From IMG/VR virus record IMGVR_UViG_2728369393_000007: 64,000 nucleotides of DNA; one strand, given 5' to 3'. How positions within the stretch are numbered: position 1 is the first letter of the stretch; each line of letters opens with the position of its first letter. Positions 2,747-49,086 of the stretch are shown piece by piece. Position numbers and translations under genes: made by a program. The notes under the pieces were generated by a model. The model saw only the letters and a list, made by a program, of their open reading frames with translations, did no database searches and was not told where the DNA came from. This DNA is from a virus (lineage: Duplodnaviria > Heunggongvirae > Uroviricota > Caudoviricetes).

Positions 2747-3505
2747 ATGAGGAACATAATGGCAGGTTTTTTAATATTCCTGTCTTCTGCTGCTTATGCT
2801 GATATCAATCTGTATGGTCCTGGTGGCCCGCATACAGCCTTGCTTGATGCAGCCAAACTTTATGCCGAAAAAACAGGTATTATAGTGAACGTTCATTACG
2901 GCCCACAGAACAAATGGAATGAAGATGCCAAAAAAAATGCAGATATCTTGTTTGGCGCATCAGAACAATCTGCTCTGGCTATCATTCGGGACCATAAAGA
3001 CAGCTTCAGTGAAAAAGATATTCAGCCTCTTTATCTGCGAAAAAGTATTTTACTGGTAAAGAAAGGTAATCCTAAAAATATCCGGAGTATTGACGACCTG
3101 ACCAGACCTGGGATTGGCGTAATTGTTAATGATGGTGGTGGTACCAGTAATACATCAGGCACTGGCGTCTGGGAAGATATTGCCGGACGTAAAGGGAATA
3201 TAGAAACTGTCGCCGCAATCCGAAAAAATATTATTTTATATGCGCCCAATAGCGGAACTGCACGTAAGGCTCTTGAGAATCAGCCTGGAGCAGATGTCTG
3301 GATAACCTGGGCTGACTGGGCAGCCAGTAATCCAGAAATTGGTGATGTCGTGGAAATAGCGCCAGACTACGTGATATGGCGTGATATGAACATTACAGTA
3401 CGTCAGGATGCAAATGATGAAACCCGTCGATTTGCAGAATGGCTACAAACCGATGAAGCGGCGCCTGCATTCAAAAAATATGGCTGGACCAGGAAAGGCA
3501 CTTGA
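2747..3505 (+). CDS. secreted periplasmic substrate-binding protein (ModA/anion-binding PBP fold), orphan
   Basis: AAAGGAG RBS; signal peptide MRNIMAGFLIFLSSAAYA; PBP type-2 fold features; AT-rich codon usage unlike flanking phage genes; no linked permease/ATPase. Confidence 0.65.
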   Translation: MRNIMAGFLIFLSSAAYADINLYGPGGPHTALLDAAKLYAEKTGIIVNVHYGPQNKWNEDAKKNADILFGASEQSALAIIRDHKDSFSEKDIQPLYLRKSILLVKKGNPKNIRSIDDLTRPGIGVIVNDGGGTSNTSGTGVWEDIAGRKGNIETVAAIRKNIILYAPNSGTARKALENQPGADVWITWADWAASNPEIGDVVEIAPDYVIWRDMNITVRQDANDETRRFAEWLQTDEAAPAFKKYGWTRKGT

Positions 3506-3840
3506 CATCCTCGTCCTTCAGGACGTGGATTCTTTTTCCGGATGCCGCGCCAGCGGCATGTAGGGGCAGCTCACAAAACGGAAAAAATTGTACGCTAAGC
3601 CTCGCCAGGTGAACTGAATTCATTCCGATATGGGAATTCCCATATCGGGCGAAAACGGTTTGCTGTAACGGCAGAGTTAAGTAGGATTGCTGCGGGTGCT
3701 TGAGGCTATCTGCCTCGGGCATGAACACCAACGGCAGATAGATAAAAGCCCCACCCGACTATAAATCGAAGTGAGGCCCCTATATGCTCGTCACATATAG
3801 ATTGCCTCTTACGGACCGAAAGGTCAAGGAGAAGCAGGCT

Positions 3841-3996
3841 ATGAAGCAGCAAAAGGCGATGTTAATCGCCCTGATCGTCATCTGTTTAACCGTCATAGTG
3901 ACGGCACTGGTAACGAGGAAAGACCTCTGCGAGGTACGAATCCGAACCGGCCAGACGGAGGTCGCTGTCTTCACAGCTTACGAACCTGAGGAGTAA
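3841..3996 (+). CDS. hokD: Hok/Gef family type I toxin (HokD/RelF-like)
   Basis: 51 aa MKQQKAMLIALIVICLTVIVTALVTRKDLCEVRIRTGQTEVAVFTAYEPEE, AGGAG RBS; single TM helix. Confidence 0.8.
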   Translation: MKQQKAMLIALIVICLTVIVTALVTRKDLCEVRIRTGQTEVAVFTAYEPEE

Positions 3997-5932: not shown

Positions 5933-6298
5933 ATGACTGAACGGATAGAATTTGTTTTGCCTTACCCGCCGACGGTGAATACCTACTGGCGACGTCATGG
6001 CAATACGTATTTCATCTCGGAAGCCGGAAAGCGTTATCGCCGTGATGTGGCGCTAATTGTTCGCCAGCAGCGGCTGAAATTAAACCTGTCCGGAAGGCTG
6101 GTGATAAAGATTATTGCAGAGCCACCGGATAAGCGCCGTCGTGACCTGGACAATATCCTGAAAGCACCACTGGATGTGCTGACGCATGCCGGACTTCTCA
6201 TAGACGACGAGCAGTTTGATGAAATCAATATTGTGCGCGGTCAGCTCGTTCCTGGTGGGCGGCTGGGGATAAAAATCACAGAACTGGAGTGCGCATGA
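5933..6298 (+). CDS. rusA: RusA-family Holliday junction resolvase
   Basis: 121 aa; PYPPTVNTYW…RRDLDN…LIDDEQ motifs match RusA. Confidence 0.8.
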   Translation: MTERIEFVLPYPPTVNTYWRRHGNTYFISEAGKRYRRDVALIVRQQRLKLNLSGRLVIKIIAEPPDKRRRDLDNILKAPLDVLTHAGLLIDDEQFDEINIVRGQLVPGGRLGIKITELECA

Positions 6299-6984
6299 AT
6301 AACCACTATTTACAGTTTGTGCGTGAGCAGCTCATTATCGCCACCGCTGATTTGAGTGGGGCAACAAAAGGTCAGCTTGAAGCCTGGCAGGAGAATGCCA
6401 TGTTCGATACAGGGCGTTACAGGCGAAAAAAAATCCGGTACCGCGATGAAGTGACTGGAAAAATGATAACGCGGGATAATCCACCAATCCCGGGAAAGCA
6501 ATCGCTGGCGAAGGGGACGTCAATTCCTCTGGTCAGTCCGGTTGAGTTTTCGACATCATCGTGGCGGCGGGCTGTTCTGTCTCTTGAAGAACATCATAAA
6601 GCCTGGTTGTTGTGGTGTTACAGCGGGAGTATTTGTTGGGAATATCAGATCGCGATAACACAGTGGGCGTGGAATGAATTTAATACTCAATCCGGTACCA
6701 GAAAAATTGCTGGGAAAACGCAGGAACGCCTGAAAAAATTAATCTGGCTGGCGGCGCAGGCAGTAAAAGCAGAACTTTTTGGTGGGGAAGGTTATGAATA
6801 TCAGGAGCTGGCATTACTGGCGGGAGTGACAACTAAAAACTGGTCCAAAACATTTACTCGTCACTGGGTTGCAATGAAACACATTTTTCACCGACTGGAT
6901 AGTGAGGCTTTATTATTTGTAATGAGAACACGTTCAAAACAAAAGGCGGCATTTTCAAAGCAAAGTGTTGCAAAAGTAGATTGA
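6295..6984 (+). CDS. late antiterminator Q-like protein (Qin quuQ-like)
   Basis: ATGA overlap with rusA stop, GGAG RBS; position immediately upstream of a terminator and the tRNA/lysis region. Confidence 0.5.
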   Translation: MNNHYLQFVREQLIIATADLSGATKGQLEAWQENAMFDTGRYRRKKIRYRDEVTGKMITRDNPPIPGKQSLAKGTSIPLVSPVEFSTSSWRRAVLSLEEHHKAWLLWCYSGSICWEYQIAITQWAWNEFNTQSGTRKIAGKTQERLKKLIWLAAQAVKAELFGGEGYEYQELALLAGVTTKNWSKTFTRHWVAMKHIFHRLDSEALLFVMRTRSKQKAAFSKQSVAKVD

Positions 6985-7051
6985 AAGGCATATATTTCAT
7001 GCAAATCTGATATTTTGCCGATTTTGTACGTGATGGCAAAAGCAAACAAAA

Positions 7052-7075
7052 CCCGCCCACAAGCGGGTTTTTTTG
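7052..7075 (+). terminator. rho-independent terminator downstream of Q (tR'-like)
   Basis: CCCGC-CCACAA-GCGGG + T7. Confidence 0.55.
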
Positions 7076-7141
7076 TGCCACTTATCTCGGATAGACATGG
7101 TGAATGCGCTGGTGGAGGAGATAAGGGTGATTTTTGTATGC

Positions 7142-7170
7142 TTGCAACATTGATTTCGTAACGTTATTAT
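7142..7170 (+). promoter_or_regulatory. sigma70-like promoter for the tRNA cluster
   Basis: TTGCAA-17 bp-TATTAT followed by GC-rich discriminator, ~10 bp before tRNA 5' end. Confidence 0.45.
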
Positions 7171-7179
7171 CCTGCGCCC

Positions 7180-7255
7180 GGCCCTTTAGCTCAGTGGTGA
7201 GAGCGAGCGACTCATAATCGCCAGGTCGCTGGTTCAAATCCAGCAAGGGCCACCA
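7180..7255 (+). tRNA. ileZ: tRNA with CAU anticodon, Ile2 (lysidine)-type, phage ileZ-like
   Basis: Cloverleaf GGCCCTT/AAGGGCC acceptor, GCTC/GAGC D-stem, CTCATAA anticodon loop, TTCAAAT T-loop, encoded CCA. Confidence 0.8.
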
Positions 7256-7256
7256 A

Positions 7257-7332
7257 CCGCCACTAGCCATCAGGAAAGAGCGTCAACCCTTTAAGTTGAG
7301 TGTGCGAGGTTCGAGTCCCCGGTGGTGGTCCA
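7257..7332 (+). tRNA. tRNA-like sequence at the argN position, non-canonical
   Basis: 76 nt, good acceptor (one G-U), TTCGAGT T-loop and encoded CCA, but D-stem pairs only 2 bp and anticodon loop CCTTTAA has C33. Confidence 0.4.
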
Positions 7333-7345
7333 TTATCGGTATTCT

Positions 7346-7420
7346 GCGTTGTTAGCTCAGCAGGACAGAGCAATTGCCTTCTAAGCAATCGGTCACTGGT
7401 TCGACTCCAGTACAACGCGC
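7346..7420 (+). tRNA. argO: tRNA-Arg (UCU), phage argO-like
   Basis: GCGTTGT/ACAACGC acceptor, GCTC/GAGC D-stem, ATTGC-CTTCTAA-GCAAT anticodon arm, TTCGACT T-loop. Confidence 0.75.
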
Positions 7421-7435
7421 TACACTTATTTTCCC

Positions 7436-7459
7436 GGCTCGCTTTTGCGGGCCTTTTTT
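7436..7459 (+). terminator. rho-independent terminator after tRNA cluster
   Basis: 7-bp stem (one G-U) with TTTT loop followed by T6. Confidence 0.5.
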
Positions 7460-7592
7460 GTATCTGCGCCACGCCCGGCGCATACCAACCACAGAGCCTT
7501 TCGGGGGGGGAGCTTACGGAGTGGTCAGTGTGACTTTCTCTGTGGGCAGATCGCTCCCGGGCGTTGGCTCACCCACCCAAAGGAACGTCACG

Positions 7593-8025
7593 ATGTTTGG
7601 TATTTTTGGTAAAAAAAGCCCGCAGAGCGGCAACGGAAATTAAAAAGTTTGAAAAACGCGATCTGGCACAGGTGGTGATTAACGCCGCATACCTGGTGGC
7701 CTATGCAGATGGTGAATGTGAGGCTTCCTAGAAAGCGAAGATCGAACAGGTACTGCGTAATCAGCCTGCGCTGTACGCGTTTACGTCAGAAATTAATGCG
7801 ATTAGCGCAACCATTATCGGTCAGCTGGATACGAACTTTAAAACTGGTCGTCGTGCGGTGTTACGTGAGATCGAGGATGTGAAACACGATACGCGTGAAG
7901 CGGAAGATGTGCTGGATGTGGCGGTGGCCATTGCGGAGGCAGACGGCGAAATTGAGCCGGAAGAGCGCAAGGTGCTGGAAGAGATTGCCGGTGTTCTGGG
8001 TCTTCGTCTGGAGAATTACCTGTGA
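7593..8025 (+). pseudogene. TerB-like (tellurite-resistance TerB fold) gene, disrupted
   Basis: ATG 7593 with AAAGGA RBS gives MFGIFGKKSPQSGNGN*; +1 frame from 7636 continues …EIKKFEKRDLAQVVINAAYLVAYADGECEAS(TAG)KAKIEQVL…DGEIEPEERKVLEEIAGVLGL; frameshift in A7 run 7611-7617 plus in-frame TAG 7729-7731. Confidence 0.55.
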
Positions 8026-8189
8026 CGGTAAAACTGCGCCTGACTGTGGCTGCACTCCTGCTGTTTCTGGTGGTGATGGTGGATTTCACCAGCAGAATCA
8101 TGTCGGTGCTGGCGGATGGGGTGCTGGTCTGCGGCATTATGGTATTGCTGTGGCCGGTGATAAAAAGAAACAGCCTGCATAATGCTTGA
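8022..8189 (+). CDS. small membrane protein (two predicted TM helices)
   Basis: GTG start overlapping TerB stop; 55 aa; not in ORF track (<60 aa). Confidence 0.3.
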   Translation: MTVKLRLTVAALLLFLVVMVDFTSRIMSVLADGVLVCGIMVLLWPVIKRNSLHNA

Positions 8190-8390
8190 TTTTTTTGTTT
8201 GCTGTTTATTAAAAACACTTCTGCATGGTGAATCCCCCTGTGCGGTGGGGCAATCAGCAAGAAGGAATATGGGGTAATCGCGGATTCAGGTGCTGATACT
8301 GAATTCACCGGGAGGCACCCGGCACCATGCTTTGCCACAAAAGTGTTATTTCTGTTTTTCTCAAACTATCATCGTTATCCCTTTATTTTC

Positions 8391-8417
8391 GGCTGCGCAT
8401 GGCGCGGCCTTTTTTTT
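8391..8417 (+). terminator. rho-independent terminator upstream of nanS-p
   Basis: GGCTGCGC-ATG-GCGCGGCC stem-loop + T8. Confidence 0.5.
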
Positions 8418-8503
8418 ACGACCAGCCACTGGCAGATGGTCATCCTGTGATTTGATTCCGCTTCCGGCTTTTTAACTCTGTTCCTCTACACGGGAGAAAT
8501 TCG

Positions 8504-30129: not shown

Positions 30130-31452
30130 TTAGACTCTTGTTTCTTGGATTATATCAACGGTATCAACATAATTTGATGGGTTATGATGTGGTGAGTTAT
30201 TGCTTTCGATATTGATGACCACATCCTCTGGATTTGGATGCCGTTGTCCAACAGATACACCTTCTTCCATTGCGCGTATATCAGCCCCTGTGGCATGTTC
30301 AATATCTGCTTTATTTGGGAAAATGGCACCTTCTCTTGCATGCCACCATATACGAGGATAGTCAGTGAATCTGGCCTCTCCAAACTCGGCCTTGTTTAAA
30401 TCAGCCAGTCCAAGAGTAGTACCTGCCCACCATAAAATAGTGTCTGGCTTTAATCCGGGGGTATTATACTGTATGGCATGCCCCGCTGCTTGCCCAACCA
30501 TTGCACCGATATGAGGACTTAACATTGGATCTGTACCAGTAAATCTGGATACTGCAAATCCCCCTACAGCACCAAGCGCATTTGCGGCAGCATTGGTAAG
30601 AACGGCATATTTAGTATTAGGGTTATCTAAATCCCACTTGAAATGTGCGCCAAACTCCAGCCCTAGAGTTGCCTGTAGTGGAGATGCACCATATTTAAAA
30701 TCTGCTTCTCCCGGTCTGATCACCCACTCTTCAGTATAATTTGCTTTGGGGCCATCAGGAGTAAGAGGAGTTTCTCCAACAAGCTTCCATCCATTTTCAG
30801 TTTTGACTATAGGAAGTTCCACACCATGATTACGAACTACTTGAGCTGTTAATCCAAACCATGGTATTGGGTCTTTTGACGCGGTGGTTACCGTCGAAGT
30901 AGTGGCTGATGCAATAGTGGATGCAGCAGTCGATACAGTGGTTGGTATATTGCTGTTGCTTAATGCATTTTTTAATGGACCAGGAAGGTCTTTAAAATTA
31001 ATACCTATTTCATCATGCAAAGGGAATATCTGTAAAAAATAATTACCTGATGTAGGATGAATATCTGGTTTTACAATGTTTAGCTGGACACCATATTTAC
31101 CAGAGATACCCGGAACGGTGCTGGGTATTTCTAATGCCATCTGAGAGACATTGAATAAACCAAACATATCCAATGCTTTTTTTCCTGCAGAGCCTTCTTC
31201 AAGATGAGGTGCAAGATATTTATCCAGCCCAGAGAGCAGACCTTCATCTTTTATCAAGCTCAGTAGAGCTGTTGTTTCACCGCATTCCGGTGCATGTCGC
31301 TGCATATCCTCTGGGATATGAACAACAAATCCCGTTTCGCATCCATTAGGTAATTCGGATTGCGGTATTTGTGTAGGGGACGTTTGTTCTGCGTGATGAT
31401 GTCGATTGTTTTGTGTGGTGATTCCGGATGTTACGATCGGTTGAATGTTCAT
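30130..31452 (-). CDS. nleA: type III secreted effector NleA/EspI
   Basis: 440 aa MNIQPIVTSGITTQNN… with C-terminal PDZ-binding ETRV. Confidence 0.9.
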   Translation of the reverse strand: MNIQPIVTSGITTQNNRHHHAEQTSPTQIPQSELPNGCETGFVVHIPEDMQRHAPECGETTALLSLIKDEGLLSGLDKYLAPHLEEGSAGKKALDMFGLFNVSQMALEIPSTVPGISGKYGVQLNIVKPDIHPTSGNYFLQIFPLHDEIGINFKDLPGPLKNALSNSNIPTTVSTAASTIASATTSTVTTASKDPIPWFGLTAQVVRNHGVELPIVKTENGWKLVGETPLTPDGPKANYTEEWVIRPGEADFKYGASPLQATLGLEFGAHFKWDLDNPNTKYAVLTNAAANALGAVGGFAVSRFTGTDPMLSPHIGAMVGQAAGHAIQYNTPGLKPDTILWWAGTTLGLADLNKAEFGEARFTDYPRIWWHAREGAIFPNKADIEHATGADIRAMEEGVSVGQRHPNPEDVVINIESNNSPHHNPSNYVDTVDIIQETRV

Positions 31453-33228: not shown

Positions 33229-33273
33229 TCTGTTAGGAATAATTAGATAGGTTTATTTTGAAGGTTGAAATGT

Positions 33274-34185
33274 ATGTTATCGCCCTCTTCTATAAATTTG
33301 AGATGTTCATGGAATTCTTTAACCAGAAACCTGACTTCGCCTGATAATCGTGTTTTATCCTCTGTAAGGGATGCTGCTGTTCACTCTGATAGCGGGACGC
33401 AAGTAACGGTTGGCAACAGAACATATCGTGTTGTGGTCACTGATAATAAGTTTTGCGTTACAAGAGAAAGTTATAGTGGTTGTTTTACTAATCTGTTGCA
33501 CAGGTTGGGATGGCCTAAGGGAGAGATTAGCAGAAAAATTGAGGCTATGCTGAATACATCGCCAGTGAGCACGACTATAGAAAGAGGCTCTGTTCATTCG
33601 AACAGACCTGATTTACCTCCAGTGGATTATGCGCAGCCGGAGTTACCTCCAGCGGATTATACTCAGTCAGAGTTGCCGAGGGTTAGCAACAATAAATCAC
33701 CCGTGCCAGGTAATGTTATTGGTAAAGGTGGTAATGCTGTCGTGTATGAAGATATGGAAGATACAACAAAAGTGTTGAAGATGTTTACTATATCTCAAAG
33801 CCATGAAGAGGTGACAAGCGAAGTTCGTTGTTTCAATCAGTATTATGGTTCCGGGAGTGCAGAGAAAATATATAATGATAATGGAAATGTTATTGGTATT
33901 AGAATGAATAAAATAAATGGGGAATCTCTTTTGGATATTCCATCATTACCAGCACAAGCTGAACAGGCTATTTACGATATGTTTGACAGACTGGAGAAAA
34001 AAGGAATTCTTTTTGTTGATACAACAGAAACAAATGTTTTATATGATCGTATGAGAAATGAATTTAATCCAATAGATATATCATCTTATAATGTTTCTGA
34101 TATTTCATGGAGTGAACATCAAGTCATGCAATCTTATCACGGAGGAAAGCTGGATCTTATTAGTGTAGTATTAAGTAAGATATAA
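33274..34185 (+). CDS. nleH: type III secreted effector NleH (OspG-like kinase)
   Basis: MLSPSSINLRCSWNSLTRNLTSPDNRVLSS… kinase core, C-terminal SKI. Confidence 0.9.
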   Translation: MLSPSSINLRCSWNSLTRNLTSPDNRVLSSVRDAAVHSDSGTQVTVGNRTYRVVVTDNKFCVTRESYSGCFTNLLHRLGWPKGEISRKIEAMLNTSPVSTTIERGSVHSNRPDLPPVDYAQPELPPADYTQSELPRVSNNKSPVPGNVIGKGGNAVVYEDMEDTTKVLKMFTISQSHEEVTSEVRCFNQYYGSGSAEKIYNDNGNVIGIRMNKINGESLLDIPSLPAQAEQAIYDMFDRLEKKGILFVDTTETNVLYDRMRNEFNPIDISSYNVSDISWSEHQVMQSYHGGKLDLISVVLSKI

Positions 34186-34250: not shown

Positions 34251-34820
34251 ATGTTACCAACAAGTGGTTCTTCAGCAAATCTTTATTCATGGATGTATGT
34301 ATCAGGAAGAGGTAACCCTTCGACTCCGGAATCAGTAAGTGAGCTTAATCATAATCACTTTCTTTCTCCTGAATTACAAGATAAACTTGATGTTATGGTC
34401 TCTATATATTCATGTGCCAGAAATAATAATGAGCTTGAGGAAATTTTTCAAGAGCTAAGTGCTTTTGTAAGTGGGCTGATGGATAAGAGAAATAGTGTAT
34501 TTGAGGTGAGAAATGAAAATACTGATGAGGTTGTCGGAGCGCTGAGGGCGGGAATGACGATAGAGGATAGGGATAGTTATATCAGGGATCTTTTTTTTCT
34601 GCATTCATTGAAAGTAAAAATTGAGGAAAGTAGACAAGGCAAAGAAGATTCGAAATGTAAAGTTTATAATCTGCTATGTCCGCATCACTCTTCAGAGCTA
34701 TATGGTGATCTACGAGCAATGAAATGCCTCGTGGAAGGATGCAGTGATGATTTTAATCCTTTTGATATTATTAGGGTACCAGATCTTACTTACAACAAAG
34801 GATCTTTACAATGTGGATGA
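34251..34820 (+). CDS. nleF: type III secreted effector NleF
   Basis: 189 aa MLPTSGSSANLYSWMYVSGRG… ending LQCG. Confidence 0.9.
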   Translation: MLPTSGSSANLYSWMYVSGRGNPSTPESVSELNHNHFLSPELQDKLDVMVSIYSCARNNNELEEIFQELSAFVSGLMDKRNSVFEVRNENTDEVVGALRAGMTIEDRDSYIRDLFFLHSLKVKIEESRQGKEDSKCKVYNLLCPHHSSELYGDLRAMKCLVEGCSDDFNPFDIIRVPDLTYNKGSLQCG

Positions 34821-48679: not shown

Positions 48680-49086
48680 AAAAAAGCCGGGAGTAACCCG
48701 GCTCACTCAACATCAATAACGGGGAGCTGTTTCGCATAAAACGGCTCCGAAACATCCAAGAACAGTTCTAAAGATATCAGCAGCTATATGATCATTTCAA
48801 GACCAAATATTGATTCTGCAATTTCGGGACGTTACACTGTCTCCGCACCTTATAAAGCGGGTGCCGGGGTCGCAGCCCGGAATTGCTCGAGGCGATATAC
48901 GACGCGCCAGCGTCTTTTTTATCGTCCATGCTCGCGCACGCCAGAATTATGGTGGGCTGGGCAGGGGAGCCGAAAGGCTCGCCGGTTTCCTTGAGCGCCG
49001 GTACTGCGAACCCTGTTCAGTTCACCACCCATGAGTTTCGCAGCTCCGGTGGTGGAAGTTTTTCACTGCTCAAGGAGGCTGCCATC

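Follow-up and report, generated by a model that had tools for sequence, protein, structure and literature searches.

Introduction

The closest described relatives of the locus studied here are tciA and tciB of phage P1, two neighbouring genes that are followed in P1 by a third gene, tciC. TciA is related to TerB, a protein encoded in ter operons, and ter operons confer resistance to tellurite, to pore-forming colicins, and to phages. A different pair of genes, stxAB, occupies the cargo slot of the lambdoid phages that encode Shiga toxin (Stx). We compare these systems with a locus at positions 7593–8189 of a 64,000-nucleotide stretch of DNA from a virus of the class Caudoviricetes (IMG/VR record IMGVR_UViG_2728369393_000007). 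This whole stretch is referred to as the window. In the window, a broken tciA gene and an intact tciB gene lie where Stx phages carry stxAB. With a probability of roughly 0.87, the best overall explanation of this locus is a decayed two-gene cassette of the P1 TciA/TciB type that occupies the cargo slot near the start of a lambdoid late operon.

The locus is already known, as a RefSeq-annotated pseudogene of a known phage accessory cassette in a decaying prophage, and in this sense it is ordinary. The value of its description lies mostly in annotation: the position that Stx phages use for their toxin is filled here with a dead TerB-like gene, a gene for a small membrane protein, and a known small RNA (sRNA). 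The tciA–tciB locus should not be taken as new cargo or as a virulence factor. The intact TciA–TciB pair, on the other hand, is strongly conserved, with a ratio of nonsynonymous to synonymous substitution rates (dN/dS) of about 0.05, and spans very different phages.

Identity and Lesions of tciA

The tciA gene (7593–8025, + strand) would code for 143 residues if it were intact. Its ATG codon is found at 7593–7595, with an AAGGA motif 8 nt upstream, as read directly from the sequence. Seven adenines (7611–7617) occur within TAAAAAAAG, and the frame that begins at the ATG closes after 16 codons (MFGIFGKKSPQSGNGN, then a stop). The +1 frame reads ...ARRAATEIKKFEKRD... as far as a TAG codon at 7729–7731, the stretch ahead of this codon including ...ARRAATEIKKFEKRDLAQ..., and is then open to the TGA at 8023–8025. 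Removal of one A gives a 143-codon reading of tciA that is uninterrupted except for this single internal stop.

Alignment with intact homologues, including WP_001299632.1 (strain 88_1577), WP_001304604.1 (ABU 83972), and the proteins of phages JLK-2012 and PPyecE_EH1910, identified both lesions. Where the window has A7, the intact alleles have A6 (Lys7-Lys8), and where the window has TAG, they have GAG (Glu46). This glutamate is invariant across an alignment of 30 TciA sequences with identities down to 51%. According to the structural model described below, a stop at codon 46 would truncate TciA past helix 1 of 7. The window copy has no intact reading frame for the TerB domain, owing to the TAG at codon 46 and the +1 insertion in the A-run. 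Judged from its sequence, window tciA is a pseudogene of the TerB family and not a functional member.

The repaired 143-residue protein is readily recognized as TerB-like. It matches Pfam family PF05099 (TerB) with 47 bits over residues 31–138 (cut-off 24.4, E 3.6e-12), and PHROG 632, annotated as "tellurite resistance", with 229.9 bits over its full length (1–143/143). A profile of homologues matches KP-TerB (PDB 2JXU) over residues 15–137 with an E of 2.8e-9, and also 2OU3 with an E of 1e-3. An intact homologue modelled with AlphaFold2 (pLDDT 87.9) is predicted to be all-helical, with seven helices. The top Foldseek match of the TciA model is 2H5N (PG1108; probability 1.00, TM 0.56–0.60, E only 0.02), which we take to be a member of the TerB-like superfamily. 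A tblastn search of phage genomes recovered the two genes under the names tciA/tciB in Escherichia phage JLK-2012, as well as tciA of P1 at about 40–50% identity. Comparison with the PADLOC defence models gave no convincing match: TciA reached only PDC-S48 (E 0.0088, 13 bits) and TciB none. A first-pass annotation of the window, based on the letters alone, had described a TerB-fold gene broken by a frameshift in the A7 run and by an in-frame TAG, and had proposed a comparison with PF05099. Both the fold and the two lesions are borne out by these results.

The first 12 kb of the window are identical to Escherichia coli CFSAN004176 (NZ_CP014583.1). In that genome, PGAP calls a pseudogene ([quoted passage not shown]) that begins at TTG 7597 and is followed by a "DUF3927 family protein", WP_000216649.1. 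This TTG is in frame with the body of tciA only if the run has seven adenines. Alleles with A7 and GAG are annotated by RefSeq/PGAP as proteins of 142 residues that start with MVFLVKK... (P0130, P0131, P0135; partial P0177, 847 members; labels beginning with L or P denote records of our comparison). The TTG start chosen by PGAP masks the A-run insertion, and A7 alleles without the TAG pass as intact proteins although their annotated N-terminus is not the native one. Proteins as far removed as those of P1 and Erwinia phages keep the native N-terminus, M-(F/L)-G-x-(F/L)-K-K, and the ribosome-binding site of the ATG is the better of the two. Since the native N-terminus is conserved and the ATG is better served than TTG 7597, we consider A7 to be damaging, but not provably null. 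The TAG is the decisive and unambiguous null lesion of tciA.

Two ways to read through these lesions were considered and rejected. An odd tRNA-like sequence in the neighbourhood (see below) is not a credible amber suppressor: its anticodon loop is CCUUUAA (UUU, or UUA if shifted) and not CUA, and it fails the Rfam tRNA model. Programmed frameshifting or transcriptional slippage at the A-run is equally unattractive, since intact alleles have A6 without a shift, the TAG would still lie downstream, and selection on the gene is relaxed. An antisense open reading frame at 7838–8338 and other overlapping frames have no family matches and were taken as chance open reading frames.

Distribution of tciA Alleles and Selection

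Alleles were searched in 5,426 complete E. coli genomes, with the frequency of A7 estimated from alignment lengths. Related loci recovered with an alignment of TciA were all from close E. coli relatives and served for the comparison of alleles. A 57-nt probe centred on the TAG matched exactly in 577 E. coli records. In about two-thirds of the 816 cassette-bearing records, the best copy has the A7 length and an identity of at least 99%. Copies of A7 length span serotypes O157:H7, O55:H7, O26, O111, and O103. The complete A7+TAG allele was also read directly in independent assemblies (L001–L004, L094, L103–L107). Since this allele recurs in many independent assemblies, we can eliminate the possibility that A7+TAG is a sequencing artefact.

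One could still argue that A7 is an error of sequencing or assembly, or that the locus consists of chance open reading frames without homology to TerB. Homopolymer indels are a known class of error, the differences between the window and CFSAN004176 consist of 12 indels only, and a poly-G run in front of tciA varies between assemblies. However, many assemblies produced in different laboratories and at different times, NC_013008 (TW14359) and several CDC and Japanese genomes among them, have the same A7, and the repaired protein has strong homology to PF05099, PHROG 632, and 2JXU. This explanation is effectively refuted. The first-pass annotation had itself named a lack of TerB homology and an artefactual homopolymer length as outcomes that would speak against its proposal; what we find instead is strong homology and an allele that is present in many independent genomes.

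Intact tciA alleles have dN/dS values of 0.02–0.10 at dS values up to 0.68. From these numbers we conclude that intact tciA is a real, constrained gene. The TAG alleles have dN/dS values of 0.35–0.86, and selection on them is relaxed. Several TAG alleles have acquired further damage: the 5' end is replaced in L108–L112, and conserved residues are changed in L005 and L103.

These values also bear on the idea that the window allele is partly functional. In this scenario, initiation at TTG 7597 would give an N-terminal peptide of 44 residues, and re-initiation at GTG 7858 would give a C-terminal fragment of 55 residues that contains the second ADGE motif and acts together with TciB. The TTG is indeed in frame with the body of the gene in A7 alleles and is the start used by PGAP. 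The fragment encoded by 7858–8025 scores 32.9 bits on PF05099 by itself and ends at the GTGA overlap with tciB, and PHROG 3920 is made up of C-terminal fragments of this kind. However, GTG 7858 is without a Shine-Dalgarno sequence, and the Shine-Dalgarno sequence is better placed for the ATG, which lies 4 nt ahead of the TTG. The elevated dN/dS of TAG alleles extends over the whole gene, and additional damage is accumulating in them. We consider residual function of this type very improbable, and retain the reading of window tciA as a pseudogene.

At least five mosaic backgrounds contain the TAG; they differ in the N-terminal variant of tciA, in the type of Q (PF06323 or PF03589), in the variant of tciB, and in the downstream gene (nanS-p or holin). 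The tciB variants in these backgrounds code for 55 residues, for 52 residues in a 434-like form, or for 58 residues owing to a 9-nt duplication. Other lesions and partial states were also encountered. An independent 1-nt deletion close to the start of tciA is present in L046, L056, and L073. Each lesion also occurs singly, as A6+TAG in L005 and L071, and as A7+GAG in P0130, P0131, P0135, and P0177. Codon 46 is TGG (Trp46), one step from TAG, in rare alleles from two different backgrounds (P0124, P0133), and insertions of two codons occur 3' of codon 46 in P0129 and P0135. An order of events in which the TAG came first, as inferred from its larger number of backgrounds, was withdrawn, given that both A7+GAG and A6+TAG exist. 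Since both single-lesion states exist, recombination or recurrent slippage is needed under either order. The set of allele states (A6/GAG, A7/GAG, A6/TAG, A7/TAG, A7/TGG, 5'-replaced, and 1-nt deletion) is a possible marker for recombination among prophages of enterohaemorrhagic E. coli (EHEC).

The spread of the TAG raises the question as to whether loss of TciA is adaptive. A null allele could be favoured in hosts with many prophages, such as EHEC and enteropathogenic E. coli (EPEC), for example if TciA were to interfere with resident prophages or a chromosomal ter island, and could then spread by recombination. This would explain why the identical TAG occurs in mosaic backgrounds that differ in Q type, N-terminus, tciB variant, and downstream genes, and why, across the five serotypes listed above, about 10% of complete E. 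coli genomes have it, usually genomes with several copies. The existence of independent lesions (the 1-nt deletion, and A7 on GAG backgrounds) would be explained as well. But hitch-hiking with the conserved leader, tciB, STnc100, and nanS-p in a recombining pool of prophages accounts for the spread without selection. Furthermore, many EHEC genomes contain intact copies only, as strain 88_1577 does in six places, the sampled IMG/VR copies are mostly intact, and TAG-to-TGG alleles that resemble revertants exist. Adaptive loss of TciA is possible but not needed, and we rate it as unlikely. Similarly little weight should be given to the more specific idea that the TerB subunit is disarmed repeatedly and selectively in multi-prophage E. 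coli while tciB and STnc100 are kept. If it were true, TciA would be a factor in conflicts between phages, acting in exclusion, lysis, or envelope control, and its loss would be favoured once many prophages share a cell.

tciB and Its Pairing with tciA

The second gene of the cassette, tciB (8022–8189, + strand), is intact and codes for a 55-residue DUF3927 protein (WP_000216649.1). Its GTG start at 8022 shares the sequence GTGA (8022–8025) with the stop codon of tciA, and a GGAG motif is located 8 nt upstream; from this start, the frame is open for 55 codons to position 8189. TciB matches PF13064 (DUF3927) with 60.4 bits (cut-off 25) and PHROG 1470 ("TciB-like") with 102 bits over residues 1–54/54. 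Two hydrophobic segments at about residues 7–20 and 30–44 (hydropathy maxima at 10–18 and 34–42) are accompanied by Lys and Arg residues at both ends of the protein. The pattern DF(T/S)S...LADG...WP.IK is conserved in the TciB family and is present in the window protein. The two-helix membrane protein with an overlapping GTG start that had been predicted at first pass thus turns out to be TciB.

The tciB frame is open in nearly all of 89 loci and in every TAG allele examined, and its dN/dS over alleles is 0.12–0.40. On the lineage of the window, an open frame of 168 nt is also expected by chance, because there have been so few disruptive events.

It has to be considered whether the tciB frame is kept for a promoter of the downstream sRNA gene STnc100 that lies in its 3' end, and not for the TciB protein. 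The Rfam model of STnc100 starts at 8194, just past the tciB stop codon (8187–8189), a CATAAT hexamer occurs within tciB at 8178–8183, and no TAG allele has a closed tciB frame. Set against this proximity are the dN/dS values across alleles, which indicate constraint on tciB at the protein level, and the conservation of TciB with TciA in phages without STnc100 (P1, SP-058, ZY21). The promoter scan called no promoter on the + strand in this region. In addition, we calculated that with only two extra disruptive events in tciA, chance alone would leave the shorter tciB undamaged in about half of all cases. We doubt that a promoter explains the open frame.

The pairing of tciA and tciB is conserved in other phages. 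In P1, Fostie, Klebsiella 1 LV-2017, Erwinia ChrisDB, Pseudomonas ZY21, and Salmonella SP-058, the two genes are neighbours whose codons either abut or overlap, and the identity of TciA to the window protein falls to 33% among phages with this conserved adjacency. TciA–TciB is a widespread phage module that occurs in temperate lambdoid phages, P1-like phage-plasmids, N4-like phages, and jumbo phages. Apparent TciA–TciB fusions (P0128, P0183) were not used as evidence for an interaction, as the junction crosses a few out-of-frame codons, which points to indels or errors. In phage 434 (L012, 1332–2564), the same slot contains a gene for a 247-residue membrane protein without a Pfam match, tciB, an open reading frame for a 62-residue membrane protein, and the esterase gene. 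Since phage 434 has tciB but no tciA, tciB can exist without a TerB partner.

The Cargo Slot and Its Expression Signals

The late operon of the prophage starts with the gene for the late antiterminator Q (6289–6984, + strand; PF06323 Phage_antiter_Q, 306.8 bits), for which PGAP annotates an intact coding sequence at 6295–6984 in the 100%-identical CFSAN004176. A G+C-rich hairpin at 7048–7080, flanked by T and A runs on both sides, was detected in a terminator scan and is a likely terminator of the tR' type after a short pR' leader. The stretch between Q and the tRNA genes (6993–7080, + strand) includes this strong tR'-like hairpin with its T-run, together with weak, sub-threshold Rfam matches of the isrK/isrJ type at 7000–7073. 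This leader may correspond to the short pR' transcript that has been described as an sRNA in Stx phages.

Three tRNA-like sequences follow on the + strand. The first, at 7180–7255, is a tRNA-Ile of the ileZ type with a CAU anticodon, found by ARAGORN, Rfam (72.5 bits), and PGAP. The third, at 7346–7420, is a tRNA-Arg(UCU) of the argO type (ARAGORN; Rfam 68.1 bits). Between them, ARAGORN calls a tRNA-Lys(UUU) at 7257–7332, which is better described as a diverged argN-like tRNA with a UUU anticodon and of doubtful function. This sequence has no Rfam tRNA match at E ≤ 1 and was not annotated by PGAP. Relative to the tRNA-Arg(UCG) (argN) of L006, it has 15 substitutions and one deletion in the D-arm; several of the changes in stems are compensatory, and position 33 is a C.

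A terminator-like hairpin with a T-run (7436–7459, + strand) separates the tRNA cluster from the cassette, and a hairpin of different sequence at the equivalent place precedes the tciA leader in every upstream context. This leader (7466–7592, + strand) is a conserved sequence of about 130 nt that travels with tciA and is kept whatever lies upstream. According to RNAalifold, it may form a long hairpin (98.5% of cells paired), although one covarying pair only and a z of −1.72 are weak signs of structure. It contains the variable poly-G run (7503–7510), which arose through a T-to-G change in the allele family of the window and ranges in length from 6 to 12 among near-identical genomes. This variation could reflect slippage or homopolymer sequencing error. 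A scan of the + strand from the upstream terminator to the ATG (7454–7592) found no sigma-70-like promoter. As far as a scan of this sequence can tell, the lack of such a promoter fits Q-dependent late transcription. The first-pass annotation had stated that cargo at this site is expressed on induction; the prophage in the window, however, is defective and its left arm is lost.

Downstream of the cassette, a gene for an STnc100- or PasD-type prophage sRNA (8194–8366, + strand), which was overlooked at first pass, matches Rfam RF02076 with 100.8 bits (gathering score 47, E 2.6e-22) and begins 5 nt past the tciB stop. The 3' hairpin of the STnc100 model itself is absent in the window; a different terminator-like hairpin followed by T8 (8391–8419, + strand) closes the unit of cassette and sRNA. 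In Stx2 phages, STnc_100 was reported 75 nt downstream of stx2, and the published qPCR primers for STnc_100 (PMC12370729) have exact matches in the window at 8224 and 8297. The STnc100-type sequence that is found 3' of tciB is also found 3' of stx1B in Shigella phage 75/02. [quoted passage not shown] The downstream flank of the slot is a nanS-p-type sialate O-acetylesterase gene (8504–10354, + strand; DUF1737, SASA, and DUF6645) that is 96% identical to yjhS of Stx1a phages. In the Stx1a phage Stx1_14040, stx1A and stx1B lie directly 5' of the yjhS/nanS-p gene. The slot therefore has the order Q, tR', tRNAs, terminator, stxAB or leader–tciA–tciB, STnc100, terminator, and nanS-p, with the lysis genes after nanS-p. 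The first-pass annotation had placed the locus between the tRNA cluster and nanS-p, at the stx position, and both statements are confirmed by these flanks and by the shared STnc100-type sequence.

In about half of the lineages inspected, tRNA genes occur within about 2 kb of tciA–tciB (lambdoid/JLK-2012, P1, Erwinia jumbo, Vibrio K481, and Pseudomonas ZY21). Linkage to tRNA genes was rejected as a general rule, as the module has no tRNA genes close to it in Pseudomonas AF, Fostie, Klebsiella LV-2017, Zuri, SP-058, PPyecE, and 434. The proximity may only reflect common hot spots for accessory genes.

Proposed Function of the Cassette

How might an intact cassette work? TciA would be a 143-residue, all-helical, cytoplasmic protein with a TerB fold and two acidic ADGE motifs. 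TciB, made by translational coupling, would form a 55-residue hairpin in the inner membrane, with its Lys- and Arg-rich ends probably both on the cytoplasmic side. By analogy with TerB and its membrane partners in Ter systems, we surmise that the two proteins act as a single membrane-associated unit at the inner membrane. The pair also occurs in phages that are virulent by their taxonomy (N4-like and jumbo phages), and for this reason it is probably useful in lytic growth and not only in lysogenic conversion. Again by analogy, its most likely role would be protection against envelope or ion stress, or exclusion of other phages or colicins.

In the window, this unit would be reduced to TciB alone at best, translated from its own Shine-Dalgarno sequence. 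A TerB domain cannot be made, with TAG in place of Glu46 and an extra A that shifts the ATG frame. Decay of tciA is in keeping with the state of the prophage, which is defective, carries effector genes, and is no longer capable of a lytic cycle.

Several observations weigh against the interpretation of the locus as a decayed cassette of known type. A7 alone, to judge by the in-frame TTG 7597, may be tolerated. The comparison with PADLOC defence models gave no convincing match. Between tciB of the window lineage and its nearest alleles there are two nonsynonymous and no synonymous changes. The tciA, tciB, and tciC genes of P1 are non-essential and were named from homology only, and we found no experimental study of what the phage proteins TciA and TciB do. 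Finally, some of the prophage genes that appear frameshifted in the reference assembly could owe this to homopolymer errors.

Host Prophage and Remainder of the Window

The annotation of the prophage (window 1–42000) was read from CFSAN004176. The prophage is defective. Its left arm is lost, IS600 truncates the left end and splits terL (about 14927–16083), frameshifts disrupt the capsid and portal genes, and tail genes are cut short. Over the whole overlap of 49.5 kb, the window and NZ_CP014583.1 differ by 12 gap openings and no substitutions. Since differences by indels only are the expected pattern of homopolymer-length errors in one assembly, frameshift calls elsewhere in the window should be treated with caution.

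The cargo of the prophage comprises paa (2747–3505), a PerC-family regulator gene (12434–12748), nleA (30130–31452), nleH1-2 (33265–34185), nleF (34251–34820), nleG (36977–37624), and espM1 (37808–38398). A type I toxin–antitoxin system of the hok/sok type is located at 3694–3996 (+ strand), with sok RNA (RF01794, 103.9 bits) at 3694–3843 and hokD at 3841–3996. A second mobile element lies 3' of the prophage and includes a tyrosine integrase gene (41434–42720, − strand), an excisionase gene, and genes of the Rha and Ash families. It also contains, at 48845–49032 (+ strand), an isrK-like RNA with 50.2 bits, which is at the gathering score, and a C4 antisense RNA with 84.4 bits.

Comparison with Known Systems

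The window locus can now be placed among the systems from which we started. It shares its two protein families and their order with tciA–tciB(–tciC) of P1 and with TciA/TciB of Escherichia phages JLK-2012, 434, and PPyecE_EH1910: a TerB-like protein of 141–143 residues comes first, followed by a DUF3927 protein of about 54 residues. In P1 and the lambdoid phages, as in the window, tciB begins either within or directly next to the stop codon of tciA. Window TciA is about 40–50% identical to TciA of P1 and 93–96% identical to the lambdoid copies. In contrast to P1, tciA of the window is a pseudogene, to judge from its reading frame, and the STnc100 sRNA takes the place of tciC. A tblastn search with TciC of P1 against window positions 7001–11000 gave no meaningful match, and tciC appears to be P1-specific.

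KP-TerB, from the operon terZABCDEF, belongs to the same Pfam family as TciA. The alignment of residues 15–137 with 2JXU includes the C-terminal A-x-ADG-x-x-x-x-x-E motif, and the predicted fold of TciA is helical. Unlike TerB of the ter operon, TciA is found alone with a 55-residue membrane partner and not in a seven-gene operon with TerC- and TerD-type proteins, and its sequence is distant.

The N-terminal region of DjlA offers a looser parallel. The NCBIfam model for DjlA matches TciA at residues 87–140 with an E of 2.7e-7, a match that falls far below the cut-off of that model. DjlA combines a membrane segment with a TerB-like domain, and tciAB would split these elements over two polypeptides. 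This likeness is an analogy and not membership: tciAB is without a J domain, and the order of the elements is reversed.

With the stxAB cargo of Stx lambdoid phages, the cassette shares the slot and probably the transcriptional logic, 3' of Q, tR', and the tRNA genes and 5' of STnc100 and nanS-p. In contrast to stxAB, the proteins of tciAB are unrelated and without toxin function, and the prophage that carries them in the window is defective.

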